From an uncultured bacterium (GTDB lineage: Bacteria; Patescibacteriota; Minisyncoccia; Phycocordibacterales; GWA1-40-21): DNA of 64,000 nt. Position numbers and translations under genes: made by a program. Of the stretch, positions 5,164-61,743 are shown piece by piece. The stretch's first letter is position 1; each line of letters begins with the position of its first letter. The stretch is from assembly GCA_903822075.1 (NCBI GenBank), contig CAIJNK010000021.1, positions 13,112-77,111 on the forward strand, given 5' to 3'. The notes under the pieces were generated by a model. The model made no database searches, was not told the origin of the DNA, and saw nothing but the letters and a program-made list of their open reading frames with translations.

Positions 5164-5172
5164 TGTTATAAT
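5164..5172 (+). promoter_or_regulatory. Extended -10 box TGTTATAAT 6 nt upstream of the GIY-YIG ATG (leaderless-type promoter).
   Basis: TGnTATAAT match. Spacing places the TSS at the start codon. No SD. Confidence 0.45.
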
Positions 5173-5178
5173 ATTCCC

Positions 5179-5421
5179 ATGTATTTTACCTACATCCTTG
5201 AATGTGCCGATAAAACTTATTATGTCGGATGTACAAATGATCTTGAAAAAAGACTGCGGCAACATAATGGTTCTAAATGCGGCGCACATTATACCAAAAT
5301 ACGCCGACCAGTTATTTTGAAATACCAGGAAGAATTTAAGACATTAGCTGAGGCAAGAAGAAGAGAAGCTGAGATAAAGAGCTGGAAAAGAGAAAGAAAG
5401 ATTAACTTATTTGAAAAATAA
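5179..5421 (+). CDS. GIY-YIG nuclease-domain protein (UPF0213/YhbQ-like), 80 aa.
   Basis: [25 protein letters not shown] matches GIY-YIG core. Confidence 0.8.
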
Positions 5422-5491
5422 CCGAGGTAGATATTCCCTGCTCCGCAGCACTTGAATTTTGCAAAAAATATTGTAGTATCATACCGTGTTT

Positions 5492-6382
5492 ATGACCAAT
5501 AATAACACTCGCATAATATCTTTACTCGAAGAGGAACTTATTAAGTGCCACGCACCGGTGACAGGCTATTGCGTTACAACGGCGATTGTTACAGAAAAAG
5601 ATACATACATTGAGCATAATCATGAAGACCAAGACTCAGTTGTCTTTGAACATGCAGAGATAAGGGTATTGGAGAAAATTTTAAAGAAAGAACAAAGCCC
5701 AATAATTAAAAGGGTCTACATGTTGGGTGGCGGGGCAATCAAAAAAATAAAACACTATACGCCATGCTACGCTTGCACCCATAAAATGGCTCCATACATC
5801 ACTTCCAATACAACAGTTACACTTTTACCATTACTAGCCACCACTGCGCTGGTAACGTTTAACTACAATGAACTCCTCTCAAGTTATTCGGATGTGCCTT
5901 ACTCAAAATTTAGTAACACAAGCAAACAAGGAATACAAAAAGAGTTACGTGATAAAACTATTTTGAAGGGTAAAGATATCGATTTTATTGCCGACCTAAT
6001 ATTACTTGGTTTAAGAGAAAAGTTTGAGTTTTATTTGACCGGCAGTTCAACCGGGAGGGGCGGGGTCAGCAGATTACTTATGGAAAAAACTAAAACCAGT
6101 TATGGTGACATTGATATTATTGTCGTTGTTGCGGCCGATTATTACAAGATGGCAATAGAAAATATTGAAAAAGTCATTACACTACATTATGGCGCACACC
6201 TTAAAGAAGAAAGGCTAGTTCCCTTACGTCATAATAAATTAGGAGTTGTCCTTGGGAAGGCATATTACAGATGTAGTAATTCAAACGAAAAAATGTTAGA
6301 TTTTACTTTCAGTACGGATTTTAAAGGCTCATTATCCTACCATGCCTATGAGTTGAAAAATTGGTTCCATCAGTTGTCATAA
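5492..6382 (+). CDS. Fusion protein: N-terminal CDA-fold (cytidine/nucleotide deaminase-like, HAE + PCxxC) domain plus C-terminal Pol-beta-type nucleotidyltransferase domain.
   Basis: FEHAEIRVLE ... TPCYACTHKM (H/C/C zinc ligands). TGSSTGRGGVSRLL..SYGDIDIIVVV (GS...DxD NTase motif). The ORF-track start 5486 is a GTG; the first ATG is at 5492. Confidence 0.55.
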   Translation: MTNNNTRIISLLEEELIKCHAPVTGYCVTTAIVTEKDTYIEHNHEDQDSVVFEHAEIRVLEKILKKEQSPIIKRVYMLGGGAIKKIKHYTPCYACTHKMAPYITSNTTVTLLPLLATTALVTFNYNELLSSYSDVPYSKFSNTSKQGIQKELRDKTILKGKDIDFIADLILLGLREKFEFYLTGSSTGRGGVSRLLMEKTKTSYGDIDIIVVVAADYYKMAIENIEKVITLHYGAHLKEERLVPLRHNKLGVVLGKAYYRCSNSNEKMLDFTFSTDFKGSLSYHAYELKNWFHQLS

Positions 6383-6418
6383 CACTTTCGGCCACACGTT
6401 ACAAAGTGGGTAAATTAT

Positions 6419-7069
6419 ATGATTAAAAATTTAAGAGAAAAGCTTACTAGAATCGCCGAGGAGAGACAAGTAAAAGATGACCCCTCGCACGATTTTCAAC
6501 ATGTGAGACGAGTTTTGAATTTGGCAGTCAAAATAGGCAAGAGCGTAAATGCCGATGAAGATATCGTCATTCCGGCGGCCTTGTTCCATGATACGATTGT
6601 CTATAAAAAGAATTCCCCAGAAAGTAAGAATGAGGCAAACGAAAGCGCTGAAGTCGCCTCCAGAATACTGAGTAGTATAGAAGGATATCCTAAAGAAAAA
6701 ATTGCTAAGGTTGAAATTTGTATCAAACAATGTTCTTTTTCTAAAGGAATCAAGCCGGATTTACTGGAGTCAAAAGTCCTTCAGGACGCTGACCGATTAG
6801 AAGCGACCGGAGTTATCTCAATCATGAGAACTTTTTCCTCGTGTGGACACATGAATAGGCCATTATATGATCCACTGGACCCTTTCTGTGAAAAAGGGAC
6901 GAAAGATTTTAGATCCGGTATTGACCTCTTCTACCAGAGACTATTAGTTGTGGAGAAAACAATGCATACCGAACTGGCAAAGAAAATGGCCGGAGCCAGA
7001 ACAGACTTTTTAGAGAAGTTTCTAAAACAATTAAAAAAAGAGCTTACGGAATCAGATGTTTTAAAATAA
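6419..7069 (+). CDS. HD-domain metal-dependent phosphohydrolase.
   Basis: SHDFQHVRRV ... ALFHD ... LQDADRLEATG (H..H / HD / D motif set), 216 aa. Confidence 0.75.
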   Translation: MIKNLREKLTRIAEERQVKDDPSHDFQHVRRVLNLAVKIGKSVNADEDIVIPAALFHDTIVYKKNSPESKNEANESAEVASRILSSIEGYPKEKIAKVEICIKQCSFSKGIKPDLLESKVLQDADRLEATGVISIMRTFSSCGHMNRPLYDPLDPFCEKGTKDFRSGIDLFYQRLLVVEKTMHTELAKKMAGARTDFLEKFLKQLKKELTESDVLK

Positions 7070-7070
7070 A

Positions 7071-7098
7071 ACCCCTGGCACATTACTGCACCAGGGGT
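7071..7098. terminator. Bidirectional terminator hairpin ACCCCTGG-loop-CCAGGGGT between convergent HD and dcd genes.
   Basis: 8-bp perfect stem directly after the HD stop codon. Confidence 0.5.
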
Positions 7099-7908: not shown

Positions 7909-8844
7909 CTATATCTTCAAATATCGCCTGACAGCCAGATAACTGGAGATAGCACCCAAAGCAATGCCGGAGCCAAAAGTAATCAGGAAAATCTGGCCGA
8001 AATTCTTCAGGTAGAAATCAAACAAATCCAGACCAACAAAGAAGTTCTTAGAGAGATTACCGATCCAGTACGTCAAACCGAGAAATACAGCCAACACTAA
8101 AGTTGCCGAAACGATCCCGTAAAGAATTCCCGAAACGACAAACGGTCCTTTTATGTAACGGCCGGAGGCTCCCACCAAACGCATAACAGATATTTCATCT
8201 TTGGAAATAAAGATGGCGAGTCTAATGGTATTGAAGGTGATGATAATGGAAATGATCAAGAAAAGAATGGCCACCCAAAAACCAACGGCATTCACAGCAT
8301 CCGTAATTTTAACCAGTTTTTCAATCACTGGTTTATTTTGACAATAATTGACTTTTTCAATGATGGAAAACTTACTTTCAAAAGCCGAACAATCCGAACC
8401 TTTTAAGTCAAAAAAGTTGGCAATACTTTCATACTGGGAAGGGTCTTTGGCTTTGATATCAAGACGGGCGCCAAAAGGATTACTCCCAAGCTCATTTAAG
8501 GCATCGAGAATCAAACCGTTGTCCTTCCATTTTTCCTGAAAGTCAGAAAGGACTTGCTCTTTGGGAACATATGTCACCTTCTCCACTTCCGGCAAGGCAT
8601 CGGTAGATTTCTTAAGGCTCAAAATATCCGACTCGGCTACATCCGTATTGAAATAAACTTTCACATCTACCTTGTTTTTTATTTCCTGCAGGGAATAGCT
8701 CAGAATGGCACTCATAAAAATGAGCGATGTAATCATAAAAAGCGTAATAAACATCACGACGAGCGAAGATAAGGAAACAAAACCATTACGCCAAAAATTG
8801 GTGAGACCCGCTTTAAAAACTCTTTTTATTTTCGTTAAAAACAT
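7909..8844 (-). CDS. ftsX: Cell-division ABC transporter permease FtsX.
   Basis: 311 aa. N-terminal TM, periplasmic domain and 3 C-terminal TM helices. Directly downstream of ftsE. Confidence 0.8.
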   Translation of the reverse strand: MFLTKIKRVFKAGLTNFWRNGFVSLSSLVVMFITLFMITSLIFMSAILSYSLQEIKNKVDVKVYFNTDVAESDILSLKKSTDALPEVEKVTYVPKEQVLSDFQEKWKDNGLILDALNELGSNPFGARLDIKAKDPSQYESIANFFDLKGSDCSAFESKFSIIEKVNYCQNKPVIEKLVKITDAVNAVGFWVAILFLIISIIITFNTIRLAIFISKDEISVMRLVGASGRYIKGPFVVSGILYGIVSATLVLAVFLGLTYWIGNLSKNFFVGLDLFDFYLKNFGQIFLITFGSGIALGAISSYLAVRRYLKI

Positions 8845-8852
8845 ATTTCGGT

Positions 8853-8861
8853 ATTATAGCA
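8853..8861 (-). promoter_or_regulatory. Extended -10 box TGCTATAAT (within ATGTGCTATAAT) 8 nt upstream of the ftsX ATG.
   Basis: Minus-strand reading GAAAGTATGTGCTATAATACCGAAATATG. Leaderless geometry. Confidence 0.45.
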
Positions 8862-9534
8862 CATACTTTCCATGCTTATCATCTCGGACGATCTTACCAT
8901 TTTGCATACTGATTACCCGCTTACCCAATGACTCCACTACCGTGCGGTTATGTGTCGTGATTATCACTGTGGTACCCAAGTCATTTATTTTTTTGAGAAT
9001 TTGGATAATTTCAAAGGTATTAGCCGGATCTAGATTACCGGTAGGTTCATCGGCAATAATCACATCCGGTTGATTCACAATGGCCCGGGCAATAGCCACC
9101 CGCTGCTTCTCTCCGCCAGAAAGTTCATTAGGAAAACTATATATCTTCTTACCAATGTCCACTAATTCCAAAACATGCGGAACGTCAGCTTCGATCTCCT
9201 CGTCTGTCCGGCCGGCGGCTTCCATCGCAAAAGCAATGTTTTCATATACAGTTTTGTTTGGAAGAAGTCGGAAGTCCTGAAAAACGGTACCGATCTTTCG
9301 GCGCAAAGCGGTGATTTCTTTGCCTTTTAATTTATGAACTTCTTTTGATTCATAAAAAATGGCACCCTTGCTGGGCTTTTCCTCGGCCAAAATCATCTTG
9401 ATCAAAGTAGTTTTACCGGCACCAGAATGCCCCACAATTGAAACAAACTCTTTGGGCTCGATGGTTAAAGTGACCTCATCAAGAGCCACGCAATCATCAG
9501 AGTATATTTTGGAAACTTTATCAAAATAAATCAT
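8854..9534 (-). CDS. ftsE: Cell-division ATP-binding protein FtsE.
   Basis: Walker A GHSGAGKTT, ABC signature LSGGEKQRVAIARA, Walker B IIADEPT. Start taken at MIYFDKVSKIY (9534); the longer ORF-track start 9675 would overlap prfB. Confidence 0.8.
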   Translation of the reverse strand: MIYFDKVSKIYSDDCVALDEVTLTIEPKEFVSIVGHSGAGKTTLIKMILAEEKPSKGAIFYESKEVHKLKGKEITALRRKIGTVFQDFRLLPNKTVYENIAFAMEAAGRTDEEIEADVPHVLELVDIGKKIYSFPNELSGGEKQRVAIARAIVNQPDVIIADEPTGNLDPANTFEIIQILKKINDLGTTVIITTHNRTVVESLGKRVISMQNGKIVRDDKHGKYVL

Positions 9535-9543
9535 TTCCCTGAC

Positions 9544-9552
9544 ATTATACCA
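9544..9552 (-). promoter_or_regulatory. Extended -10 box TGGTATAAT 9 nt upstream of the ftsE ATG, embedded in the last codons of prfB.
   Basis: Minus-strand reading TTTCTGGTATAATGTCAGGGAAATG. Confidence 0.4.
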
Positions 9553-10408
9553 GAAATCTTTCAATGTCACCATCCAGCACTTCATCCACCTTGGCGGTTT
9601 CCACTTCGGTGCGGTGATCCTTGACCATTTTATAAGGGTGTAATACATAAGAGCGGATTTGATTCCCCCACTCAATGGAAGTGGTTTTGGTCACGGACAA
9701 GCCTTTTTCCTTGGCCGCCTTTTCTTCCTCCCTTTTGGCAAATAACTTACCGGTTAAAATCTGCAGGGCTTTTTCTTTATTTTGCGGCTGGGAGCGCTCC
9801 GAAGTAGAGCGGACGGATATACCCGAAGGTAAATGAACAATCCGCACCGCTGTTTCTCTTTTGTTCACGTTTTGTCCGCCCGGACCGCCAGCTTTGGAAA
9901 TTTCAATCCTTAAATCACTTTCGGGGATGGAAAGCTCGGCGGATTTCTCAAATTTTGGCACAAATTCCACCAGGGAAAAAGAAGTTTGACGCAAGCTCTT
10001 GGCATTAAAAGGTGAGAGACGCACCAACCGATGAACGCCGGATTCGCTTTTCATTTTCCCGTAAACATTCTTACCAGACACTTCCAAAGTGATGTTTCGG
10101 TATCCCCCATGATCATTTTCATTTTCATCCAAGATCTTGTAGGACCAGTTTTGTTTGGCAAAAAATTTACAATACATTTGCAAAAGCATTTTGGAAAAAT
10201 CCTCCGCATCATCTCCGCCTGCCCCAGACAAGATGGTCAGAATCGCATCACCACTGTCATACTTTCCCACGCCGGCGATTTCCGCTTTTAATTCACTAAT
10301 TTCTTTTATAACAGCCTGGGCCCGATTTTTGTCAGCCCAAAAATCGGGCTTCATCATCTGCGCCTCCAAGTCCTCAAGTTTTTTAGTTTTATCCTGATTG
10401 TCAGCCAT
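9545..10408 (-). CDS. prfB: Peptide chain release factor 2, unusually short (287 aa). Lacks most of domain 1 and has no programmed frameshift site.
   Basis: SPF tripeptide (VRLSPFNAKS), GGQ motif (GGPGGQNVNK), RSYVLHPYKMVKDHRT. The ATG at 10408 abuts the tRNA-Thr gene. Confidence 0.85.
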   Translation of the reverse strand: MADNQDKTKKLEDLEAQMMKPDFWADKNRAQAVIKEISELKAEIAGVGKYDSGDAILTILSGAGGDDAEDFSKMLLQMYCKFFAKQNWSYKILDENENDHGGYRNITLEVSGKNVYGKMKSESGVHRLVRLSPFNAKSLRQTSFSLVEFVPKFEKSAELSIPESDLRIEISKAGGPGGQNVNKRETAVRIVHLPSGISVRSTSERSQPQNKEKALQILTGKLFAKREEEKAAKEKGLSVTKTTSIEWGNQIRSYVLHPYKMVKDHRTEVETAKVDEVLDGDIERFLV

Positions 10409-10412
10409 CCGG

Positions 10413-10485
10413 AGCCAAAGGTGAGGATTGAACTCACGACCCCCGCTTTACGAAAGCGGTGCTCTACCAACTGAGCTACTTTGGC
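10413..10485 (-). tRNA. tRNA-Thr (anticodon CGT).
   Basis: GCCAAAG..CTTTGGC acceptor. D-arm GCTCAGTTGGTAGAGC. Anticodon loop TTCGTAA. T-arm GTGAGTTCAATCCTCAC. Confidence 0.8.
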
Positions 10486-12119: not shown

Positions 12120-12196
12120 AAATATTAATCGTCAAAACAGCTTGCTTAATATAGCATTTTAAGCCCAAAAATCAATAGAAACACGACCTTAATTGT

Positions 12197-12265
12197 TGCG
12201 GGGGCCCGATTTGCACGGGCGTCTCAAGGTTATGAGCCTCGCGAATTACTGTTACTCTACCCCGC
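12197..12265 (-). tRNA. Second CAT-anticodon tRNA-like gene (short D-arm).
   Basis: GCGGGGT..CCCCGC acceptor. Anticodon stem-loop CGAGG-CTCATAA-CCTTG. T-arm GCCCG-TGCAAAT-CGGGC. Some helices are imperfect. Confidence 0.45.
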
Positions 12266-12354
12266 TAACGACTATAATACATCATTATGGTAAAAACGCA
12301 ACTTCCCTTTCCCCGCCTTTTCTAAGGAGGGGTGGCGTTCTGACGCCGGGGTGG

Positions 12355-12990
12355 TCAGATAAATTCAAACTCTCTGAATACCGCCTCGTAAAGGCCGATT
12401 ACTCTTTTGGCCTCTCGCTCATTGATCAGAAAGTCCGATCCTTCGTGGGCAATTTGATTTCTGATTTTATGAGCTTCCCAGGCGGCTTCAATATTAGTAA
12501 AATCAGATGGCTCTATAGATTTTAGTTTCTCACTGATGCTTTCCTGCAAATAGCCCATCTTCTCCAAAATATCCGCCAGCATAATATCACACTCCAGTAT
12601 AGCCAACTTCCAATCACTGGAGTTGGCGGAATTAATATGAGTCAAAACTTTTTGCCACTTTTCATTCACTACCGGTGCCATAGTTTTACTTTCCCTCACC
12701 ATTTTTTGCTCTGGCAAAACGAGTGCCTCGTGCATCTGCCGACGAATCCGCATCAAGTTGTTGGCTGACCAAACAATCACAAAAATCAAAAGAAGTGATA
12801 AAATAAAGGAAAAGGAAAAGAGCCGAAGCATAACTGTCACAGCATAATCCGGTAAAAGAAGCCAGAAATTATGCCAAGTGTCTGCCCAATTCTGCCCCGC
12901 AGTATTAGTATAGGCGGCCTTTATCAAAGCCGTAATTAATGAGACTAAATCATAGGAATGAAGAGCGTCTAGTGGTTGTGCTGGTTGCAT
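12355..12990 (-). CDS. Membrane-anchored hypothetical protein with a C-terminal Rx4H (HEPN-like) motif.
   Basis: One TM helix (FSFSFILSLLLIFVIVW). C-terminal AWEAHKIRNQIAHEGS. Confidence 0.4.
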   Translation of the reverse strand: MQPAQPLDALHSYDLVSLITALIKAAYTNTAGQNWADTWHNFWLLLPDYAVTVMLRLFSFSFILSLLLIFVIVWSANNLMRIRRQMHEALVLPEQKMVRESKTMAPVVNEKWQKVLTHINSANSSDWKLAILECDIMLADILEKMGYLQESISEKLKSIEPSDFTNIEAAWEAHKIRNQIAHEGSDFLINEREAKRVIGLYEAVFREFEFI

Positions 12991-13022
12991 ATCTAATAGT
13001 GATATTAATAACTACCAGCGTA

Positions 13023-14447
13023 TTATAACATATTTTCTATTTTCTTTGCCATCTCAAATAGTATTTTCTCATTGCCTGGCTTGGCCAGAAGCTGAAGCCC
13101 GAGTGGGAGTTTTTTACCATCTACTTCTTTATAACCAGAAGGGACCGACAAGGCAGGTAGACCAGCCAAGTTTGCTGGAACGGTAAATATGTCCTCCAGA
13201 TAAAGCTGCAACGGATCATTTATTTTCTCCCCTATTTTGAAGGCGGCATCGGGCGTCGTCGGCATAATTATGATATCCACTTCTTCAAAAGCCTTCCGAT
13301 AATCTTCCCGAATCAAATCTCTGACAATATTGGCCTTGTTATAATAAGCATCATAATAACCCGAAGATAATATATAAGTACCTAGAATAATGCGTCTCTT
13401 TACTTCCGCCCCAAAACCCGCCTGTCTGGATTTAAAATAGTCCTCTACCCCAGTTTGTCCATCAACATGAAGACCGTAACGAACACCGTCAAATCTAGTT
13501 AAATTGGAAGATTCTTCTGCAAAAACTAAGGTGTAATATGTGGCGAGAGAATATTTAAGATAAGGAAAATCAATTTCCGTTACTTCACAACCCAGACCTT
13601 TGATATTTTCTATCGCTTTATTAAAACTATCTATTACTTCCTTTTTTACACCCTTACTGGTAACAAAACCTTGAGGAATGGCAATCTTAGGTTTTGGATT
13701 TTGACTTTTAACCTCAAACCGCGTCACACTTGTGCTGTCCATCTCATCTTTTCCGACGATTACTTCAAAAACCACTTGTACATCATCAGCGGTTTTACCA
13801 ATAGCACCTATTTGATCAAATGAAGAAGCTGCGGCCATGAGTCCGTAGCGGGAAACTGCTCCATAACCCGGCTTAAGACCGACAACACCACAAAAACTTG
13901 ATGGCTGTCTGATTGACCCACCAGTGTCCGAGCCAAGAGCCACCAAAGCCATGTCAGCAGCCACAGCCGCTGCCGAACCACCCGAAGTTCCACCGGCCAC
14001 CCTCTCTAAATCATGCGGGTTATGGGTAACGCCAAAAGCCGAATTCTCTGTAGATCCGCCCATCGCAAACTCATCCATGTTGGTTCGACCCAGAAAAACC
14101 GCTCCAGCTTCCTTTAATTTCTTAATAACCGTGGCATCGTAAGTGGCGTGGTAATTTTCTAATATTTTTGAAGCGGAACTGGCAATACGGCCTTTAATCA
14201 AAATATTATCTTTCACCGCGACTGGTATACCGGTCAATAAAGTCACATTTTCTTTTCTAGCCACTCTGTCATCTGCCGCTTTTGCCTGTTCTAAAACGTC
14301 AGAAAAGATTTCCAGATAGGCGTGTATTTCTCCATCTTTCTTTTTGATATTTTCCAAATAGGCATTAGTTAAATCAACACAAGTATACTCCCCTTTCAAC
14401 AGAGCTTCATGAGCTTTTTTAATTGTCAGATCTTTTAGATTAATCAT
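13023..14447 (-). CDS. gatA: Glutamyl-tRNA(Gln) amidotransferase subunit A (amidase signature family).
   Basis: GGSSGGSAAAVAA amidase signature, 474 aa. Overlaps gatC by 4 nt. Confidence 0.9.
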   Translation of the reverse strand: MINLKDLTIKKAHEALLKGEYTCVDLTNAYLENIKKKDGEIHAYLEIFSDVLEQAKAADDRVARKENVTLLTGIPVAVKDNILIKGRIASSASKILENYHATYDATVIKKLKEAGAVFLGRTNMDEFAMGGSTENSAFGVTHNPHDLERVAGGTSGGSAAAVAADMALVALGSDTGGSIRQPSSFCGVVGLKPGYGAVSRYGLMAAASSFDQIGAIGKTADDVQVVFEVIVGKDEMDSTSVTRFEVKSQNPKPKIAIPQGFVTSKGVKKEVIDSFNKAIENIKGLGCEVTEIDFPYLKYSLATYYTLVFAEESSNLTRFDGVRYGLHVDGQTGVEDYFKSRQAGFGAEVKRRIILGTYILSSGYYDAYYNKANIVRDLIREDYRKAFEEVDIIIMPTTPDAAFKIGEKINDPLQLYLEDIFTVPANLAGLPALSVPSGYKEVDGKKLPLGLQLLAKPGNEKILFEMAKKIENML

Positions 14448-14725
14448 AATATTTTCTTTACCTTCAAATAATCCCTCTCTTTTCTTGGGAACTCATCTGT
14501 AACAACCTTAGTATTCAAACCGGGCTTATTTTTTACTTCATCAACCCTGAGCACATTTCTTAACTCACCGGCTTTCCTTTCCTCTCCAGTGGTAGTCGTT
14601 ACTTCCTTTATTTGATCCACGTAGCTTAAAATAGCACTTATATCCTTTAAATAAGCCTGTTTCTCTGCCTCGGTTAATTCAATCCTGGCCAATTGTGCCA
14701 ACTTTTCGACATCTTTTATTTCCAT
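14444..14725 (-). CDS. gatC: Glutamyl-tRNA(Gln) amidotransferase subunit C.
   Basis: 93 aa. LARIELTEAEKQAYLKDISAIL. Directly upstream of gatA. Confidence 0.8.
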   Translation of the reverse strand: MEIKDVEKLAQLARIELTEAEKQAYLKDISAILSYVDQIKEVTTTTGEERKAGELRNVLRVDEVKNKPGLNTKVVTDEFPRKERDYLKVKKIL

Positions 14726-14748
14726 ACCGAAAAGGATAACATAAATTC

Positions 14749-18968: not shown

Positions 18969-19649
18969 TTAATTCAAAATCTCGATCAGACCGTTAGACC
19001 TGACTCGCACCTTCCTGATATTACCATCGGGGTTACCCAAGATTATGGTTGCGATTCCGACGGAAGACACAGTAGTACTGTCATTAAACCTGATCTGGGC
19101 GTCCGGGTTTGGCCGCTTGAAAACAACATCTAAACTGCTCTTGCTGGTATCTGGACTAGTTGAACAAGCTTTCTGCGTAACGTCCAACTCTTCCTCGCAA
19201 ATCTGCTTGATGTAATTTCCCCTTTTAATACTATACCTGCTCACGCACCCTTTCTCAATCTGACAAATTGACGGATCAATGGTAGCTAGGGTGTTCTTAC
19301 CATAACGGCCGTCGTTACCTTCAGTACTGGAAGAATAAGTCAGGTCGGCAAAAAGAATGAACGACTTTGGAGAACTTGTGGCAAAGTGAACTCCATAAGG
19401 CACAAAGTTTCCGGTATCGCCGGAGGCCCCGGTATTAAACTCCTTGATGTTTATACCGTACATCTGAGCTTGCCTTACTGTCAAAGCTGTATCATATGCC
19501 AAATCGGTAAGTAGGATAGTACTGTTGAACTTTGACTGATTAAAAAGAACCACCCCAGTTAAGATGGTAAAAATCGAGAGGGTAACCAGAAGCTCAACCA
19601 AGGTAAAACCTATACTATTATTTTTGAAATTTCTTTTTACCTGAAGCAT
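18969..19649 (-). CDS. Type IV pilin-like protein.
   Basis: SIGFTLVELLVTLSIF prepilin N-terminus, 226 aa. Confidence 0.75.
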   Translation of the reverse strand: MLQVKRNFKNNSIGFTLVELLVTLSIFTILTGVVLFNQSKFNSTILLTDLAYDTALTVRQAQMYGINIKEFNTGASGDTGNFVPYGVHFATSSPKSFILFADLTYSSSTEGNDGRYGKNTLATIDPSICQIEKGCVSRYSIKRGNYIKQICEEELDVTQKACSTSPDTSKSSLDVVFKRPNPDAQIRFNDSTTVSSVGIATIILGNPDGNIRKVRVRSNGLIEILN

Positions 19650-19657
19650 ACGTAAAT

Positions 19658-21000: not shown

Positions 21001-21006
21001 GGGTTC

Positions 21007-41565: not shown

Positions 41566-41572
41566 AGAATAA

Positions 41573-49543: not shown

Positions 49544-49666
49544 GCGTCAAATGGTATCACAAAATCCACGGAAAAAATATGACGAAATAAAAAGGGCCGT
49601 CTGCGGGATGATAACACCCGCAGCCGGCCTGATTCAAAACTCAACTTCACTAAACCCAAAAGCCAC

Positions 49667-52019: not shown

Positions 52020-52105
52020 GGAACCAGTATAACACAGAGTGAACGAACGTTCACCAACCCGTTATCTCAGATAGTGCTTGATCCAAATTCTTTTAAACTA
52101 GAAAA

Positions 52106-52924
52106 TTATAAGGTGGTTTGCGCACTTATTTCATTTGTCGTGGCATCATAATTAATCCTGACACTTTTCCCTACCGACGGGGGTGTGGTCATGGGCTCTC
52201 CTACTTTTTGTTCGGCAAAATTATAAACGGCCTGCCCGTCAAGAATCTCGAGTGTCTGCGGCGCGATCCGATCACCCAAAAACACAGTGTTGGTAGCCTT
52301 ATAACCGGTACCGGTATTTATCAACAATTCCGCGTAATAAAAAGTTCCGCTGCCACCGGGACTTTCTGTCAGCCAAACGGCTTTGTCCAAAAGACCATCG
52401 CTGTTCAAATCCCCCGCTACCGGCTCGCCAAACGTTTTGTAATCGGCAAACTGAACTGATTGAGCCATGCTATCAGCCAGATTATCAACATTAAACGTGG
52501 TGCGCTCGTTCTTACATTCGGTTTTCTGCGGATCATCATAATTATCACACTGAACCGCTCGGAGGGTAAAATTCAAAGTAATGACTTTATCATTTTTTAA
52601 AAAAGCATAAGCATAGGTTGTATAGATACTGCCCGCTGCCCCCTCAGAACTGACCGTCACACAATAGGCCTGTGAATTAATTATTCTTTTCGCGCAGTTA
52701 AGTGGACCGTCAGTCACAACCACCTGGGGTGGCCAAGTCACAGCGTGGATATATTTAGTGGCAAGTACGAGTGGGTAAACAAAAGTGACATTGGTCTCCG
52801 AGATTGGGTTGGGATTTGGTGTAACCAAGCTTGACACCTTATTCTGACTGTAGATAAAATAACCCGCTGCGCTTATTATGATAAGTAAAATCAAAGAGAA
52901 AATTATCTTATGTATTTTTGTCAT
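52106..52924 (-). CDS. Secreted hypothetical protein with an FG-GAP/VCBS-like Ca-binding repeat.
   Basis: Signal peptide/TM MTKIHKIIFSLILLIIISAAG. GDLNSDGLLD motif. Confidence 0.5.
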   Translation of the reverse strand: MTKIHKIIFSLILLIIISAAGYFIYSQNKVSSLVTPNPNPISETNVTFVYPLVLATKYIHAVTWPPQVVVTDGPLNCAKRIINSQAYCVTVSSEGAAGSIYTTYAYAFLKNDKVITLNFTLRAVQCDNYDDPQKTECKNERTTFNVDNLADSMAQSVQFADYKTFGEPVAGDLNSDGLLDKAVWLTESPGGSGTFYYAELLINTGTGYKATNTVFLGDRIAPQTLEILDGQAVYNFAEQKVGEPMTTPPSVGKSVRINYDATTNEISAQTTL

Positions 52925-53078
52925 GAGTATAGTATAACATTTAAATATTAATTCCGTCTTACAAAATAATTTGACAATTACCGATTATGAGAATAACCTT
53001 AAAAACAGAAGCTAAATAGCTAAAAAGAGCTGTTGGCAAAAACGGCCGGAAACGGCAAAACAAAAAGGAGAAGACGCG

Positions 53079-53858
53079 ATGAAGAGATACGGAAATGGCT
53101 CGGCAGTGGCAATGGCAATGCAGAATTTTATCGAGTTGAGCCGAAACCCCTACCCGGGCCGCGGAATTATCACGGGCGTAAGCAGCGATTCCGCTTACCT
53201 GGTCCAGGTCTACTGGATCGAGGGTCGAAGTGATAACAGCCGCAACCGCGTCTTCAGCATTGAAGGCGGCCGGGTGTTTACGGAAGCGGCCGATCCGGCA
53301 AAAGTGAAGGATGGCAGTCTGATCTTTTACAACGCCATGGACGAATACGACGGTAACTACGTGGTGAGTAACGGCGATCAGACCGACGACGTCATGAAGA
53401 TGCTGCGGCGATCAGCGGGTATCCGTTTGCACGATGCCCTGCTCGGACGATTTCATGAGCCGGACAAACCGAACTTTACGCCGCGGATCACCGGTCTGAG
53501 TCGGATCAACCCCGGTAAAGACATGAACGAGCTTTCCATTCTCCGGAAATCCGACCTGGCTGACTGCGAGCGAGCCTACATTGTCTATAACAGGACCACG
53601 GCGGGTTTCGGCTTCTGCGTTACGACTTACGATGGAGATGATGACCCTCTGCCGTCGTTTGAAGGTGGACCGTACCCACTGCCAATTTTAGGTAGTGTGA
53701 ACGACGTGGCTGAAACCTACTGGTCCATCCTCGACAAGATGAACCGAGTTGCCATCGCGGTGAAGTTTATCAGCATCTCCACCGGCGAGTCGAAGATTCG
53801 GGTAATCAATCAGAACACCAAGAAAGTCCCGCCGAATCCGCCGACCGCCCAAGTGTAA
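53079..53858 (+). CDS. PurO-like (archaeal-type IMP cyclohydrolase family) protein, GC-rich cassette.
   Basis: YWIEGRSDNSRNR and VVSNGDQTDDV resemble PurO YRVSSRSFPNR / VVSNGSHTDTI. SD AGGAG. Own terminator. Confidence 0.45.
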   Translation: MKRYGNGSAVAMAMQNFIELSRNPYPGRGIITGVSSDSAYLVQVYWIEGRSDNSRNRVFSIEGGRVFTEAADPAKVKDGSLIFYNAMDEYDGNYVVSNGDQTDDVMKMLRRSAGIRLHDALLGRFHEPDKPNFTPRITGLSRINPGKDMNELSILRKSDLADCERAYIVYNRTTAGFGFCVTTYDGDDDPLPSFEGGPYPLPILGSVNDVAETYWSILDKMNRVAIAVKFISISTGESKIRVINQNTKKVPPNPPTAQV

Positions 53859-53913: not shown

Positions 53914-53944
53914 TTCAAGGTTTTATGCTAGATTTATATTTCAC

Positions 53945-54031
53945 GGAGACGTGTCAGAGTGGTCTAATGTGCCTCTTTGCTAAAGAGGTGGGGTTTAATC
54001 GCCCCCGCTGGTTCGAATCCAGCCGTCTCCG
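53945..54031 (+). tRNA. tRNA-Ser (anticodon GCT), long variable arm.
   Basis: Acceptor GGAGACG/CGTCTCC. Anticodon stem-loop CCTCT-TTGCTAA-AGAGG. Variable arm GTGGGGTTTAATCGCCCCCGC. T-arm TGGTTCGAATCCA. Confidence 0.8.
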
Positions 54032-54078
54032 CAGTTTTAAACCTATCCATGTTTTATTTAATATGTTAAAATTCTCTC

Positions 54079-55626
54079 GTGAGAAAGATTATTTTAATTT
54101 CGACATCATCTTTATTATTACTCCTAGGTGTTATATTTTTATGTTTTCATCTTTATGGAAACAATTCGTTTCCATTTAGTAATATTTTTAAAGCCGAACT
54201 GACTCCCCTAGCTCTAAACCAGCAAGATATTTCCAACTTAACAAAACCAGCAGTGGTAAGTATTTATAACCAAACTGTGGGAGACGTGACAATTCCATAC
54301 TTTGAATTCGATTGGGATAAACTGGATATAGTTTTTCCTCAAGATAAAAAGCCGACAGTAAAATCCATCAATGATTACGTGCGCGGTAGCGGCTTCATTA
54401 TCAGCGAAGACGGTTATATTTTGACAAACTCCCACGTCGTATCAGATCTAGCTTACCCCAGGACAATTGCCTATCAGCTGTTGGAGACGGCTTTCAAAAA
54501 AGCTTTTGACTCACCGGCAGTACTAAAACAGCTGGAAGTAAAATTAAAAGATATGAACGTAAAAAGCACTGACGCCGAACAATTCGGCGTTGATCTAGCG
54601 CTTAGGCTGGGAGAAAAGCTAATGTCAAAAATAACCGTTAATGTTTCGCAAAAAATAATTGTCCTTGATAATTCCTCCCCGAGCGACAAGCTCTCCGATG
54701 CTCTAGATCAGGGATACCCAGCAGAAATCACCTATGTAAATAATAATTATTTTAGCGACGAAAAAGATGTGGCCATAATCAAAATTCCCGCAACTAACCT
54801 GCCGACACTCAATATAAATGCAGATGGGGAGATAAACAACGGCCAAGAAATTTATATTTATGGCTATCCCTCATCTGGGCAATTTAACAAAGATGACATT
54901 AGCGAACCGACTTTTACTCCCGGAAGCGTCAGTGGACTCAAAGATAGCCGGGCAAAAAGTTTCAAAGTGATCCAAACCGATGCCAAAGTCTCCCCGGGTT
55001 CGAGCGGTGGCCCATTACTGAATACCAACGGTGCGGTAATAGGATTACTGACTTACGCTTCCAGTGCCGGCACATCTGGTGACGCCTTCGGTTTCGCCAT
55101 TCCAATATCAATTGCCAATGACATATTGAAAGAAAAAAATATCACCCTCAAGGATAGCGCATGGACAGAGCACTTTAAAAGCGGCCTGACTTACCTGCAA
55201 AATAATCGCTGTGAAAAAGCCATCAATGATTTTAAGATTAGCCGGGGGGTAGAAATTGATCCTTCAACCCAAGGAAACATTGATTCGTATATCAAAACCT
55301 GTACTGAGATAATTTCGTCAGGCAAATCGATAGATACGCCTTTCGACGAGATTAAAGTAAAACTAAACAAAATTGGCGGTTTATACCTATTGCTAGGAGG
55401 GTTAATTATCACGATCCTAGGCCTAGCCGTTTATATTATCCGGAAATTATTAAAAAAGATTGCCAGCTATGAACAGGTTGGGGGTCCAAGCCACCCGGTA
55501 AACCCCGACTTGTTAAACTATATCCAAACCGCCCGAAATTCTGGCTTATCCGATGAGCAAATAAACCTAAACTTAAAAGCAACTGGTTGGAGCCAGGAAG
55601 AAATAACATTAGGATTAAAAAGATAA
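54079..55626 (+). CDS. Membrane-anchored trypsin-like serine protease (S1C/HtrA-like) with a C-terminal TM segment and cytoplasmic tail.
   Basis: GSGFIISEDGYILTNSHVV (His), catalytic Asp region, SPGSSGGPLLN (Ser). N-terminal anchor. GTG start at 54079 preceded by TGTTAAAAT + 6 nt. Confidence 0.65.
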   Translation: MRKIILISTSSLLLLLGVIFLCFHLYGNNSFPFSNIFKAELTPLALNQQDISNLTKPAVVSIYNQTVGDVTIPYFEFDWDKLDIVFPQDKKPTVKSINDYVRGSGFIISEDGYILTNSHVVSDLAYPRTIAYQLLETAFKKAFDSPAVLKQLEVKLKDMNVKSTDAEQFGVDLALRLGEKLMSKITVNVSQKIIVLDNSSPSDKLSDALDQGYPAEITYVNNNYFSDEKDVAIIKIPATNLPTLNINADGEINNGQEIYIYGYPSSGQFNKDDISEPTFTPGSVSGLKDSRAKSFKVIQTDAKVSPGSSGGPLLNTNGAVIGLLTYASSAGTSGDAFGFAIPISIANDILKEKNITLKDSAWTEHFKSGLTYLQNNRCEKAINDFKISRGVEIDPSTQGNIDSYIKTCTEIISSGKSIDTPFDEIKVKLNKIGGLYLLLGGLIITILGLAVYIIRKLLKKIASYEQVGGPSHPVNPDLLNYIQTARNSGLSDEQINLNLKATGWSQEEITLGLKR

Positions 55627-56508: not shown

Positions 56509-56565
56509 GCTTTTGTTTAATTATTAATAATTTCAATTATATCATATATTTGCTAAGATACGGTA

Positions 56566-58758
56566 ATGCAATTCACAGACTTGATAGAAAAACACTTTCG
56601 TCTGCAAGATAGCCAAAAAAAGGCCCTGAAAAAGATAGGTTTAAAGACCATTGAAGATTTGCTGTATCATTTCCCGACCCGTTACGGTGACACATCAGAA
56701 ATGAAAAATATAAGTAGTCTGATTGCTGGCGAAACAGCGGTAATTTTCGGCCGAATAAATGGACTCAAAACCGGCAAGGCTTTTATAAAAAGAACCCCCA
56801 TTTCCGAAGGCGTGATTGAAGATGAAACGGGAAAAATAAAATGCATCTGGTTTCACCAGCCTTATATTGCCAAGATGGTTCAAGATGGCGCACTTGTTCG
56901 AGTGGAAGGAAAAGTTTCTGACCGCAAAGGCGTGTTGGGCATGATGAACCCCAAAATTGAAGTGGTTGGCAAACTACCCACCGGCGTGGGCGACTCTTTA
57001 TTCGGTGAGGAAGGCGAAGCGCATTCCCTTTACCCCGTTTATCCGGAAAGCCAGGGTATCACCTCCAACTGGTTTTATCACGCCGTCCAAAAAATCCTAG
57101 GCAGCGGGATTTTGGATAATTTGTTGGATTCCATTCCTGATTATATTTTAAAAACCTACAACCTCCCCTCTTTAACGACGGCCTTGGTTTGGATTCACGC
57201 CCCGCTTAAAAAAGAACATGCCGTCTCCGCCCGCAAGCGGTTTGCCTTCGAGGAAGTTTTTTATATTCAACTGCAAAAAAAGAAAGATCGATTACTTTGG
57301 CAGAAAGAACCAGCTTTTGTGATTGAAAAAACACCGGCGGAAATTGAACAGTTTGTAAAAAGATTTCCTTTCACTGCCACTGAAGCCCAGAAAAAAGCGA
57401 TTGAGGCTATTATGACGGACTTCCGAAGTGGACACGCCATGTCTCGCCTGCTTGAAGGTGATGTGGGTTCGGGTAAAACAGCCGTGGCTGCTTCCACTGC
57501 CTATTCTATAATTACTTCTCATCCGAAAGGCCAGGATTTTGGAAACCTGCAGGTGACCTATATGGCGCCGACGGAAATTTTGGCCAAACAACATTTTGAA
57601 AGTTTCATCCAGTATTTTACTTATTTAAATATAAATATCGGTTTGATTACCGGTAAAGAATGCCGAAAGTTCCCATCCAAAACCAATCCGAAAGAGTGGA
57701 CGCATATTTCTAAGCCGCAACTTTTAAAATGGGTGGAAAATGGCGAAATTCCGATTCTTATCGGCACGCATGCCCTCATTCAGAAAAATGTAAAATTCAA
57801 ACATTTAGCTTATGTGATTATTGACGAACAACACCGCTTCGGAACGGCGCAAAGGCAAAAGCTAGCCCAAAAACCAACCGATCTTAAAAAAACAGATAAA
57901 CCAAATATTAATCCTCATCTCTTGAGCATGACCGCCACACCCATTCCCCGCACTTTAGCTCTGACAATTTATGGAGACTTAGATTTAACTTTGCTTGACC
58001 AGATGCCTACGGGCCGAAAACCGATTATCACGGAAATTGTATTACCAGGTGAGCGAGAAAATACTTACACCAAAATAAAAAAAGAACTTATTGCCGGGCG
58101 ACAGCTATATGTCATCTGCCCGCGCATAGATGAGCCGGACCCCACCAAGGAAATGGCGGTCATTGCCAAAAGTGTGACCGAGGAAGCCGAGCGTTTGGAA
58201 CGTGATGTGTTTCCAGAATATAAAGATAAAATTGGCATTCTGCACAGTAAAATGTTACCGGCAGACAAGGAGTATGTCATGCAAGAATTCAAGGATGGAA
58301 AAATAAAAATCCTCGTCGCCACCTCGGTAGTGGAAGTGGGTGTGAACGTGCCAAACGCCACCGTGATTATCATTGAAGGCGCCGAACGTTTCGGCCTCGC
58401 TCAGCTGCATCAGCTTCGCGGCCGAGTTATCCGTAGTAACGACCAAGCTTACTGTTATATTTTTGCCGATTCCAAAACCCAGAAAACCGTTGACCGCTTG
58501 AAAGCTTTCAAAAATTCCTCAAATGGTTTTGAACTGGCTGAATTTGATTTGAAACTTCGAGGCCCGGGTGAACTGTCAGGCAATAGACAGTGGGGCATCT
58601 CCGACATCGGTATGGAAGCCCTCCGCAACCTCAAGATGGTGGAAGCGGCTCGCACCGAAGCCGAATATCTCCTCACCCAAGATGAAACTCTCTCTTCCTT
58701 CCCTCTTCTCATCACAAAACTCACCCACCGCAAGGAGGATGAGATTCATTTTGAGTAA
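56566..58758 (+). CDS. recG: ATP-dependent DNA helicase RecG.
   Basis: Wedge domain, Walker A DVGSGKTAVAA, DEQHRFG (DExH), helicase C motifs, 730 aa. TGCTAAGAT box 6 nt before the ATG. Confidence 0.9.
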   Translation: MQFTDLIEKHFRLQDSQKKALKKIGLKTIEDLLYHFPTRYGDTSEMKNISSLIAGETAVIFGRINGLKTGKAFIKRTPISEGVIEDETGKIKCIWFHQPYIAKMVQDGALVRVEGKVSDRKGVLGMMNPKIEVVGKLPTGVGDSLFGEEGEAHSLYPVYPESQGITSNWFYHAVQKILGSGILDNLLDSIPDYILKTYNLPSLTTALVWIHAPLKKEHAVSARKRFAFEEVFYIQLQKKKDRLLWQKEPAFVIEKTPAEIEQFVKRFPFTATEAQKKAIEAIMTDFRSGHAMSRLLEGDVGSGKTAVAASTAYSIITSHPKGQDFGNLQVTYMAPTEILAKQHFESFIQYFTYLNINIGLITGKECRKFPSKTNPKEWTHISKPQLLKWVENGEIPILIGTHALIQKNVKFKHLAYVIIDEQHRFGTAQRQKLAQKPTDLKKTDKPNINPHLLSMTATPIPRTLALTIYGDLDLTLLDQMPTGRKPIITEIVLPGERENTYTKIKKELIAGRQLYVICPRIDEPDPTKEMAVIAKSVTEEAERLERDVFPEYKDKIGILHSKMLPADKEYVMQEFKDGKIKILVATSVVEVGVNVPNATVIIIEGAERFGLAQLHQLRGRVIRSNDQAYCYIFADSKTQKTVDRLKAFKNSSNGFELAEFDLKLRGPGELSGNRQWGISDIGMEALRNLKMVEAARTEAEYLLTQDETLSSFPLLITKLTHRKEDEIHFE

Positions 58759-59449: not shown

Positions 59450-59477
59450 TAATCCGAATATTTTAGCATTTATTATG

Positions 59478-59550
59478 TGCGCGTGCTAGGACTCGAACCT
59501 AGGACCACCGAGGTATAAGCTCGGCGCTCTACCAACTGAGCTACACGCGC
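59478..59550 (-). tRNA. tRNA-Ile with anticodon TAT (UAU), AUA-reading minor isoleucine tRNA.
   Basis: Acceptor GCGCGTG/CACGCGC. D-arm GCTCAGTTGGTAGAGC. Anticodon stem-loop CCGAG-CTTATAC-CTCGG. T-arm CTAGGTTCGAGTCCTAG. Confidence 0.7.
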
Positions 59551-59666
59551 ATCTGTCTACATGCGTTATCCACCAAAACGGCATACACTCACATATCCAA
59601 AACAAATACTAACTTAAAAAACCACTTTCCGCAATCATGAGAAAATGGTTTTTTACGATTAACTTT

Positions 59667-61643
59667 CTACCCCTGATGTTCGATATCTTGTTTCTTTTTG
59701 GGGATGATGCCGTGAGCGATGATTATTTTTTCATATTCTTCGCGCTCGATGGTTTCGATTTCCATCAATCGGGCGGCGATGGCATCCAAAGCTTTGCGGT
59801 GAGTTTTAATAATTTCTTCCGCCTTGGTGCGGGAATTGGTCATAATTTCAGACACTTCCGAATCAATCAAGGCGCTGACTTTCTCCGAATATTCTTTGCT
59901 GTCACTCACGCCGCGGCTGCCAAACAAAGTGGCTCCGCCAGTACCTTCCAAAGCCAGGGCGCCAATCTTGTCCGACATACCATATTTGGTCACCATTTCT
60001 CGGGCCAAAGCCGTTGAGACCTGCAAATCGTTTGACGGACCGGTAGTCACATCATCCATAATCATTTTTTCCGTCACATAACCGGCAAGCGCCACCGTGA
60101 TGTCATCCAGGAATTCTTTCTTGCTCTGCATTTTGCGGTCCTCCAAAGGCAACTTCAAAGTATAGCCGGCGGCGCGCCCGCGGGAAATAATGGAAATCTT
60201 GTGTACCGGATCCGCATAAGGCAAGACCGAAGCCACCACGGCGTGACCGGCCTCATGATAAGCGGTTAGTTCTTTTTCTTTCTTGGACAACAAGTGTGAT
60301 TTTCTTTCCGGTCCGAGCATTACTTTTTCAATCGAGCGGATCAAATCAAACTGTGCCACTTTGGTTCGATTTTCACGGGCGGCCAAAATAGCAGCTTCAT
60401 TCATCAAGGAATACAAATCGGCGCCGGAAAAACCGGGAGTTCGCTCCGCAATCACTTTCAAATTCACATCTTCAGCAAACGGTTTTTCTTTGGCATGAAC
60501 AAAAAGAATAGCTTCGCGGTCAGAGCGGTCTGGTAAATCAATCACCACTCGCCGATCAAAACGGCCTGGCCGAAGCAAAGCCGGATCAAGCACGTCTGGC
60601 CGGTTCGTGGCCGCCATCACAATCACTTTTTCATTGGGTTCAAAACCATCCATCTCCACCAAAATCTGGTTCAGGGTTTGCTCACGTTCGTCATTCCCCC
60701 CACCCATACCCGCGCCACGCACTCGCCCCACAGCATCGATTTCATCCACAAAAATAATGGCCGGGGCCATATCCTTGGCCATCTTAAATAAATCACGCAC
60801 ACGAGAAGCACCAACACCCACAAACATTTCCACAAATTCCGAACCAGAAATGGAGAAGAAAGCCACCCCCGCTTCCCCAGCCACCGCTCGAGCCAGCAAA
60901 GTTTTTCCGGTTCCCGGCGCCCCCATCAGTAATATTCCTTTGGGAATTCGCGCCCCGATTTCCAAAAACTTTTTCGGATTTTTCAAAAAGTCCACCACCT
61001 CAGACAGTTCTTCCTTGGCTTCCTTGGCGCCCGCCACATCCTTGAAAGTAATTTTCTGCGTTTTGTCATTGGGCAAGCTCATACGCGCCTTGCTTTGGCC
61101 AAAAGTGAAAGCCTGCATACCAGCACCTTTTACCTGCCTGGTCAAAAACCAAATGAAGAAACCGATAAAAATAAGTGGAATCAAGAACGGACCCAGAAGT
61201 AAAAACCAGTAAATCAAACCACTCTCACTTTGGATATTTATTTTTACCGTTTCCAACTTTGAAGAGTTCACGCCATAATTAAATAAAGTTTGACTCAAGG
61301 CAGTGCCGTCTTCCTTTTGTGATTTCTTGATTACCTCGGCTGTGCTGGAACCAACCTTCTTATAAGTAACGCTTAAATCATTACCTGAAACGTCTATCTG
61401 CTGGACCAGACCAGCGGAAACATCAGAAGCCAACTGCGAGACTGGAATAGTTTCAGAACTATTGTTCCCACTGTTAATGATAGAGTATAGGGAAACAACA
61501 ATCAGTAAAATAAGAATGATATTTATTATATTGGAAAAAAGTGAATTCCGGCCAAAAAATCCTGGTATCATCCCTCCGCCCTTTTTACCGCCTCCAGCCT
61601 TTTTTGGAGCCATTCCGGGCCCTTTTTTATTTAATAGTTGCAT
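59667..61643 (-). CDS. ftsH: ATP-dependent zinc metalloprotease FtsH.
   Basis: Walker [15 protein letters not shown] region, HEAGHAVV zinc motif. Start at 61643. The ORF-track start 61661 (MCYYLHM) lies inside the promoter box. Confidence 0.9.
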
Positions 61644-61649
61644 ATGAAG

Positions 61650-61658
61650 ATAATAACA
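61650..61658 (-). promoter_or_regulatory. Extended -10 box TGTTATTAT (within AATGTGTTATTAT) 6 nt upstream of the ftsH ATG.
   Basis: Minus-strand reading AATGTGTTATTATCTTCATATG. Confidence 0.45.
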
Positions 61659-61734
61659 CATTTATTAAATAGTTCAACTACTGACTGATATAAATGAGGA
61701 ACACCACCTCTGCCCTTCTTTTATTATTTTTTTC

Positions 61735-61743
61735 TGTTATCAT
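61735..61743 (+). promoter_or_regulatory. Extended -10-like box TGTTATCAT 7 nt upstream of the smpB ATG.
   Basis: TTTCTGTTATCATACTTCTCATG. Confidence 0.4.

Follow-up and report, generated by a model that had tools for sequence, protein, structure and literature searches.

In the 64-kb stretch of bacterial DNA analysed here (the window, at its full length), about a third of the genes carry a TATAAT-like −10 box set directly against the start codon. These boxes are probably the promoters of leaderless mRNAs, with transcription beginning on the start codon or 1–2 nt before it and ribosomes loading without a Shine-Dalgarno (SD) sequence. Leaderless transcription had been proposed by an earlier sequence-only reading of the same DNA, and the proposal is borne out by motif statistics within the window, by a negative control, by conservation in 80 related genomes and by the promoter features of the box, the transcription start itself being deduced from the position of the box.

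The window is compact, with a GC content of ~42%, and its gene content includes type IV pilus genes, ftsEX, gatCA, ligA, recG, ftsH, smpB with tmRNA, and eight tRNAs; the gene identities are supported by Pfam matches. The best relatives of the window FtsH come only from metagenome-assembled genomes (MAGs) of Parcubacteria/Paceibacteria, at 65–76% amino-acid identity (Taylorbacteria, Nomurabacteria, Adlerbacteria, Zambryskiibacteria and Yonathbacteria), and its 90%-identity cluster includes the FtsH of Ca. Taylorbacteria bacterium RIFOXYD2_FULL_36_9. Because of these FtsH relatives and this cluster, the organism, an ultrasmall bacterium, is assigned to the Parcubacteria/Paceibacteria of the Candidate Phyla Radiation (CPR), near Ca. 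Taylorbacteria. Identical DNA is present in several ENA metagenome assemblies and in one NCBI contig of 85.9 kb; ENA assemblies with this organism include ERZ27313079, ERZ27313102, ERZ18625109 and ERZ18625277. The comparison set comprised the ftsH loci of 80 related Parcubacteria genomes, 1.24 Mb in total, and the negative control was 100 kb of Lachnospira eligens, an SD-using Firmicute of 37–39% GC.

The motif itself is strongly over-represented. The sequence TGTGCTATAAT occurs three times in the window (8853, 21517 and 22215, all on the minus strand and all preceded by A) against 0.02 copies expected, and the more general TGNTATAAT (TGnTATAAT) occurs 14 times against 2.52 ± 1.46 expected, the maximum in 100 shuffles being 7. 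Spacing, counted between the final base of the −10 hexamer and the start codon, was determined in a start-independent manner: the motif was located first, and the distance was then taken to the next codon opening an open reading frame (ORF) of at least 80 codons. For TG.TA...T in the window, the ORF opened at 6 nt in 10 cases and at 7 nt in 8, with ~1–2 at other distances. The 300 occurrences of TG.TA.AAT in the 1.24 Mb of relatives gave 51 long-ORF starts at 6 nt, 16 at 7 nt, 11 at 8 nt and 7 at 9 nt. The peak is seen for start codons near ORF 5′ ends; internal start codons show none.

At the level of genes, a hit was defined as TAnnnT with at least 4 of 6 matches, located 5–9 nt before the start, and matched internal codons served as control. 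In the window 30 of 74 genes (41%) are hits versus 7 of 56 internal codons (12.5%), and in the related loci 39% of genes versus 8.6% of internal codons. Requiring the TG extension removes nearly all of the background: 17/74 genes (23%) versus 0/56 internal codons in the window, and 208/1318 genes (16%) versus 4/944 controls (0.4%) in the related loci. A curated table of the window lists 22 leaderless-type genes among 69.

A box of this kind might have no function and simply reflect AT-rich intergenic DNA together with flexible start choice, given that TAnnnT with at least 4 of 6 matches is frequent in DNA of 42% GC and that 9–12% of matched control codons score as hits. This explanation is hardly conceivable in view of the TG-extended counts above and of three further results. 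Neither shuffles nor composition-matched permuted motifs, whose distance profiles are flat, produce a peak. The AT-rich Firmicute control has none either: 0 of 48 TG.TA.AAT sites in L. eligens lie 6–9 nt before a long-ORF start, while GGAGG/AGGAG motifs give the expected SD peak there. The layout is also kept at orthologues across the 80 genomes although the flanking sequence has diverged. TAnnnT stands 5–10 nt before the start in 69 of 80 ftsH orthologues; the box is present at 57 of 70 smpB orthologues, with TG at 47 and at exactly 6 nt at 37; and 40 of 54 recG orthologues have a −10 box at 5–9 nt, 26 of them at 6 nt. Genes similar to the response-regulator gene with start 3374 have a −10 box at 6–9 nt in 6 of 9 loci of relatives, and those similar to the phosphoribosyltransferase-like gene with start 29669 in 4 of 4. 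The leaderless-type layout is common to related Parcubacteria genomes.

The properties of the box are those of a promoter. A logo built from 550 aligned sites, chosen on TAnnnT only, shows T at −17 (0.49), a purine at −16 (0.67), T at −15 (0.55) and G at −14 (0.54), together with a weak TTG at −35 to −33 (0.49/0.45/0.29). The TRTGn extended −10 signature is recognised by sigma-70/sigma-A, and no translational role is known for it. Firmicute extended −10 promoters (TRTGnTATAAT, with the "−16 region") have the logo T-17 R-16 T-15 G-14 n TATAAT, the same as here, but in the Firmicute control such boxes do not lie 6–9 nt before starts (0/48), and the genes there have SD-bearing leaders. A scan for the two-hexamer (−35/−10) consensus came out barely higher than shuffles, 44 sites against 32 ± 6.5, and was rejected as a promoter finder, having recovered the ftsH promoter only; the −35 elements of these promoters are weak.

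The distribution of the box relative to gene order points in the same direction. Among genes lying less than 10 nt behind a same-strand gene the box is found at 20%, near the background of 9–12%, whereas it is found at 53% of genes behind gaps of 10–39 nt and at 39–48% of genes behind larger gaps or in divergent orientation. Restriction of a motif to operon-first genes is the feature by which GeneMarkS-2 separates a promoter from a ribosome-binding site (PMC6028130).

The motif also serves non-coding genes. In the window, tRNA-Ser (53945) has the extended −10 TGCTAGATT 10 nt upstream (53926–53954, plus strand), tRNA-Met has TGCTATATT 28 nt upstream and tRNA-Asp has ATGTATAAT 35 nt upstream; at a second tRNA-Met (12195–12285, minus strand) the hexamer is TATTAT, 7 nt from the mature 5′ end. 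In a set of 118 tRNA genes, the −10 box peaks 8–12 nt before the mature 5′ end. Given this peak, tRNA 5′ leaders in the lineage would be only ~0–5 nt long.

The window also contains boxes further from ORFs, at distances of 31–181 nt. The sequence-only reading had noted TG-extended copies at 21517 and 22215 upstream of pilin genes with long leaders, and this holds: TGTGCTATAAT lies 33 nt before the pilin ATG 21483 (21481–21527, minus strand) and 181 nt before the pilin ATG 22033, which follows a long structured leader (22031–22225, minus strand). A third such case is TGTTATAAT at a spacing of 31 nt before the ORF with ATG 12990 (12988–13030, minus strand).

These observations bear on a second alternative, in which the TATAAT-like box would act on leadered or polycistronic mRNAs as an AT-rich element, unrelated to SD, that binds ribosomes or enhances translation, in the style of the Bacteroidetes-type "group B". 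The genome makes almost no use of SD, the regions upstream of other genes are A-rich, and some boxes share sequence with the gene before them, where translational coupling would fit as well. The overlap is common, the promoters often being embedded in the 3′ end of the preceding gene. In the related loci the commonest stop-to-box arrangement has the upstream TAA as positions 3–5 of TATAAT (12 of 129 same-strand cases), and in the window this arrangement occurs at ftsE–ftsX (8853–8858) and RF2–ftsE (9544–9549), both on the minus strand. Nonetheless, TG at −15/−14, TR at −17/−16 and the weak −35 TTG are contacts of RNA polymerase, depletion at tightly coupled internal genes is the opposite of how a ribosome-binding site behaves, and the box precedes tRNA genes and lies far upstream of some ORFs. 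A translation element is accordingly quite improbable. Because of the TG/TR logo, the operon-internal depletion, the tRNA genes and the distant boxes, the evidence supports housekeeping sigma-70-type extended −10 promoters (T-17 R-16 T-15 G-14 n TAnnnT, with a weak −35), rather than ribosome-binding sites, as the likely identity of the boxes.

Where exactly transcription starts, and how ribosomes load, is inferred from the position of these putative promoters. The sigma-70 hexamer spans −12 to −7, leaving six bases between the hexamer and +1. Given this canonical hexamer-to-+1 distance, a 6-nt gap would make +1 coincide with the beginning of the start codon, an A at ATG genes and a G at htrA with its GTG. 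With 7–9 nt, either the start would be the same and the discriminator stretched, or the leader would measure 1–3 nt. The boxed genes, mostly the first of their transcription units, would have leaderless mRNAs, and ribosomes would load directly on the 5′-terminal AUG without SD pairing, a mode of loading established for Actinobacteria, Deinococcus and archaea. The start codon is ATG in 189 of the 208 TG-extended cases of the related loci, in line with a requirement for a 5′-terminal AUG. To save room in a very compact genome, promoters would often reach back into the final codons of the gene before them, in some cases with its TAA stop as part of the box. The remaining genes would be translated from A-rich, SD-free leaders or by coupling to the upstream gene, with SD motifs confined to a minority of GC-richer genes.

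Real promoters could also produce short leaders, if transcription started a few nucleotides further upstream or if the true start codons lay downstream, as with an FtsH starting at 61613. Spacings of 8–11 nt do occur, the annotation of the NCBI contig places the FtsH start at 61613 (648 aa), and at tRNA genes 1–5 nt separate the predicted transcription start from the mature 5′ end. In the related loci, however, 247 of 520 hits have the modal spacing, which is 6 nt exactly. The alignment of FtsH orthologues begins at residue 1 of the form starting at 61643, and members of the 90% cluster are mostly 657–660 aa long; likewise, the Pfam models of GIY-YIG, SmpB and the pilin N-methyl motif (N_methyl) begin at residues 1–6 of the proposed products. 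The proposed starts are supported because orthologue N-termini and Pfam model starts coincide with them, and general short leaders are unlikely.

Several points nevertheless weigh against leaderless transcription from these boxes, or against particular sites. The predicted transcription start rests on the canonical −10-to-start distance, and at spacings of 8–9 nt (ftsX, ftsE, the pilin-like gene, the P-type ATPase gene and two others) a leader of 1–3 nt would be as likely as none. Chance alone should produce about 9–12% of hits, so that among the weak sites, those lacking TG, a few may be false, for example at 5492, 29669, 35902, 43044 and 46581. The choice of start codon was partly guided by the box, an effect that the matched internal codons control but do not remove. 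A pyrimidine at −1 is found at 72% of leaderless-type and 67% of other genes (p = 0.12) and was rejected as an independent mark of the transcription start, since it does not discriminate. Finally, no 16S rRNA 3′ end was found in the window or in the 80 related loci.

The 22 curated sites of the window are spaced as follows. At 6 nt the box precedes a GIY-YIG gene (5164–5181, plus strand, TGTTATAAT, ATG 5179, with the Pfam GIY-YIG model from residue 1), a pilin gene (20998–21015, minus, TGCTATAAT, ATG 21000, with N_methyl from residue 1), a response-regulator gene (25060–25077, minus, TGATATAAT, ATG 25062, Pfam Response_reg), the NOX-like ferric-reductase gene (30398–30417, plus, TGTGCTATTAT, ATG 30415), a DinB/Pol IV gene (52017–52036, minus, TGTGTTATACT, ATG 52019), a 272-aa gene (52922–52939, minus, TGTTATACT, ATG 52924), the HtrA-like protease gene (54064–54081, plus, TGTTAAAAT, GTG 54079), recG (56551–56568, plus, TGCTAAGAT, ATG 56566) and ftsH (61641–61660, minus, TGTGTTATTAT, ATG 61643). 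At 7 nt it precedes gatC (14723–14741, minus, TGTTATCCT, ATG 14725, Pfam GatC), a TspO gene (33390–33408, minus, GGGTATAAT, ATG 33392), the MazG-like gene (41563–41583, minus, TGTGCTACCAT, ATG 41565), an MsrB gene (43042–43060, minus, GGTATGAT, ATG 43044), a transglutaminase-like gene (49541–49561, minus, TGTGATACCAT, ATG 49543) and smpB (61735–61753, plus, TGTTATCAT, ATG 61751).

Spacings of 8 nt occur at ftsX (8842–8863, minus, TGTGCTATAAT, ATG 8844, Pfam FtsX), where the TAA stop of ftsE lies within TATAAT, at a pilin-like gene (19647–19666, minus, TGCTATAAT, ATG 19649, Pfam N_methyl) and at the phosphoribosyltransferase-like gene (29652–29671, plus, TATCAT, ATG 29669). Spacings of 9 nt occur at a response-regulator gene (3372–3392, minus, GTGTATAAT, ATG 3374, Pfam Response_reg), a deaminase-like gene (5474–5494, plus, TAGTATCAT, ATG 5492), ftsE (9532–9552, minus, TGGTATAAT, ATG 9534, Pfam ABC_tran), where the stop of the RF2-like gene lies within TATAAT, and a P-type ATPase gene (35900–35920, minus, AGGTAAAAT, ATG 35902).

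The sequence-only reading had listed at least 12 genes with a box 6–9 nt before the start. Eleven of its twelve have an extended −10; the twelfth, with ATG 46581, is a weak candidate, its TATTAT lying at 9 nt without TG (46579–46599, minus strand) and directly after a terminator hairpin (46625–46600). About ten sites had been missed, those with starts at 3374, 5492, 14725, 25062, 29669, 33392, 35902, 43044, 49543, 52019 and 52924. A further candidate, GGAGGTGA before a GTG at ~46528, was rejected; the GTG is out of frame with the 46231–46581 gene and opens a short ORF only.

Within the leader between the promoter ATGTGCTATAAT and the pilin ATG 22033, a stretch of 178 nt (22031–22208) is predicted to fold at −36 kcal/mol, far better than shuffles (z = −4.1). 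The leader matches no Rfam family, and by its predicted folding it may be regulatory.

Promoters placed this close to start codons have affected gene annotation. ORF callers had been said to extend genes through the promoter, and public calls on identical DNA do disagree, with errors in both directions. The pseudo-N-termini MCYYLDM (NOX-like), MCYYLHM (ftsH) and MFCATIYSM (MazG-like) translate as had been claimed. FtsH is called as 664 aa from ATG 61661 (MCYYLHM) in two ENA assemblies, while the call on the NCBI contig is ten residues short. For FtsE, in place of the 226 aa proposed here, public calls give 239 or 243 aa and read across its own promoter (…FWYNVREM…). Lengths of 115 and 123 aa are both called for the MazG-like protein, where MFCATIYSM arises from an in-frame GTG at 41589. 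MsrB is called as 126 aa beginning with MITCM, from an ATG inside its own −10 box. The MCYYLDM extension of the NOX-like protein comes from an in-frame TTG at 30397, and the public form is the short one of 438 aa. SmpB forms of 149 and 168 aa are both in public data; the public calls are 270 or 287 aa for the release factor and 224 or 240 aa for the phosphoribosyltransferase-like protein, and a 515-aa form of the HtrA-like protein is in public data. CPR gene starts are thus annotated inconsistently, with promoter-derived residues such as MCYYLHM and MITCM added to proteins, and such errors carry over into protein families and into signal-peptide and structure predictions derived from these MAGs. 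Apart from start choice, the 80-aa GIY-YIG gene (5179–5421, plus strand) is uncalled in one public assembly (L083), in which its neighbours are just as far apart as in an assembly that does call it.

The boxed genes had been described as lacking SD sequences, and none of the 30 automatically called leaderless-type genes of the window has an SD-like tetramer (GGAG/GAGG/AGGA) at −18 to −3. SD motifs are at background level in native genes in general: among operon-internal genes of the Parcubacteria loci a tetramer is found at 13 of 180 (7%) versus 9% at random positions. These gene-level counts against a random background replaced histograms of SD-to-ORF distance, which were dropped as dominated by codon periodicity inside genes. 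Upstream of non-leaderless genes the sequence is A-rich, with A = 0.38–0.48 at −3 to −8.

Canonical SD 5–6-mers in the window are confined to GC-richer genes. Examples are GGAGG 5 nt before ATG 43946 (43936–43948, plus strand; gene GC 0.50), AGGAG 8 nt before ATG 53079 of an IMP-cyclohydrolase-like gene (53066–53081, plus; GC 0.55) and AGGAGG 7 nt before ATG 62741 of a 50-aa ORF (62728–62743, plus). The 12 window genes with SD-like upstream sequences have a mean GC of 0.50 and a third-position GC (GC3) of 0.56 versus 0.41 and 0.43 for the rest (p = 3e-7), a class that includes loose matches, G-rich motifs being somewhat likelier in GC-richer DNA. The sequence-only reading had taken SD sequences in GC-rich genes as further evidence that these genes are foreign. 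The association of SD-like sites with GC stands, but foreign origin does not find the same support. Most of the SD-bearing GC-rich genes have no Pfam, NCBIfam or PHROG match, no viral relatives of them were found, and they show only 26–42% identity to scattered plasmid genes; their gene neighbourhood does not vary between the assemblies found, and the 43946 gene has identical neighbours on each of its 7 contigs. A search for a phage or plasmid origin of these genes gave nothing convincing.

One apparent SD site, the GGAGG before ATG 10357 of the RF2-like release-factor gene, was rejected because it lies inside conserved N-terminal coding sequence (LEDLEAQMM); for this reason 10408 appears the likelier start. 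In the region 10406–10485 (minus strand), the discriminator base of tRNA-Thr(CGT) precedes this ATG by 4 nt, and there is no −10 box before the gene. Because the ATG is only 4 nt past the discriminator base, 3′ processing of the tRNA could yield a nearly leaderless RF2-like mRNA.

Judged by its sequence features, the gene layout is the GeneMarkS-2 "group C" architecture. A Pribnow box 6–8 nt from gene starts was described with GeneMarkS-2 as the signature of bacterial leaderless transcription (PMC6028130). In Mycobacterium tuberculosis, other Actinobacteria and Deinococcus, which belong to group C, the box likewise stands 6–8 nt before operon-first genes (PMC6028130). The two are also alike in that ~25–50% of transcription units are affected in group C genomes, comparable to the window, in the strong preference for ATG/GTG at the 5′ end, and in the mis-calling of starts by conventional gene finders. 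They differ in the remaining genes, which in group C carry clear SD sites, whereas here SD-like motifs are at background in native and operon-internal genes; a dual model with SD ribosome-binding sites at the remaining genes does not describe the window, where SD-like sites are found at only 12 GC-richer genes. Furthermore, group C genomes are mostly of high GC, in contrast to the window with its 42% GC and TG-extended −10 boxes, and their transcription starts were mapped experimentally, while those proposed here come from sequence.

Mollicutes promoters are dominated by the −10 box, as here. Mollicutes (Mycoplasma), assigned to group C under genetic code 4, share with the present lineage small, low-GC, host-dependent genomes, and 30–60% of their genes are predicted to have leaderless transcripts, which resembles the window (bioRxiv 10.1101/2022.07.25.500264). 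They belong to an unrelated phylum and use a different genetic code. Bacteroidetes-type group B genomes also hardly use SD and are A-rich upstream of non-leaderless genes, but they have one motif before all genes, including operon-internal ones, whereas the −10 motif here avoids tightly coupled internal genes and has promoter features; upstream of genes, the two share no more than a generic A-richness.

Within the Parcubacteria the relevant precedent concerns the ribosome. A CCUCCU anti-SD can be detected in no more than 48% of the 16S rRNAs of Parcubacteria, and bS21 is often absent (Tsurumaki et al. 2022, PMC9297842); what replaces SD in Parcubacteria is left open in that study. For the subgroup with anti-SD loss, which belongs to the same lineage as the window, SD-independent initiation was predicted, matching the scarcity of SD here (PMC9297842). 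No description of a leaderless layout was found in the literature searched on CPR, Patescibacteria, Parcubacteria and Minisyncoccota. The layout is of a known kind, from which it differs in lineage, in having almost no SD at the other genes and in the TG-extended low-GC promoter.

A leaderless layout at ~30–40% of genes together with background-level SD provides a concrete hypothesis for translation initiation in Parcubacteria, which make up a very large uncultivated part of bacterial diversity and have reduced ribosomes. Tentatively, and with chances a little short of even, the Paceibacteria/Parcubacteria, a large bacterial lineage, may have all but abandoned SD-led initiation, most of their transcription units being leaderless and the remaining genes relying on A-rich, SD-free leaders or coupling. 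If so, the leaderless layout would correspond functionally to the loss of anti-SD and bS21 reported for Parcubacteria, and the SD-bearing GC-richer genes would be a marker of recent imports unable to use their own SD. The consensus TRTGnTATAAT followed by 6 nt and ATG is directly usable for expression constructs in the emerging genetics of CPR bacteria.

Further observations concern the RNA genes and compositional blocks of the window. A tRNA-Ile with anticodon TAT (UAU) adjoins ftsH (59477–59550, minus strand). ARAGORN identified 71 tRNA-Ile genes in the window and the 80 Parcubacteria ftsH loci, all with anticodon TAT. The linkage of ftsH and tRNA-Ile(TAT) looks conserved, and the anticodon suggests that AUA is decoded by a UAU tRNA, in place of the lysidine-modified CAU tRNA that is usual elsewhere. 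Inside smpB, in its 3′ part, a perfect TTGACA-18-TATAAT (62048–62077, plus strand) is located 127 nt before the tmRNA (62205), which may be a dedicated tmRNA promoter. The predicted tag peptide of this tmRNA (62205–62629, plus strand) is long, ANSIVSRVKSVVSPYFAANSFAFAYVA. A low-GC block at 38491–41214 (GC 0.32–0.35) holds one 670-aa and one 234-aa gene. In other assemblies of the same organism, contigs end at ~41.1 kb and ~50 kb in window coordinates, and these ends may mark strain-variable borders.

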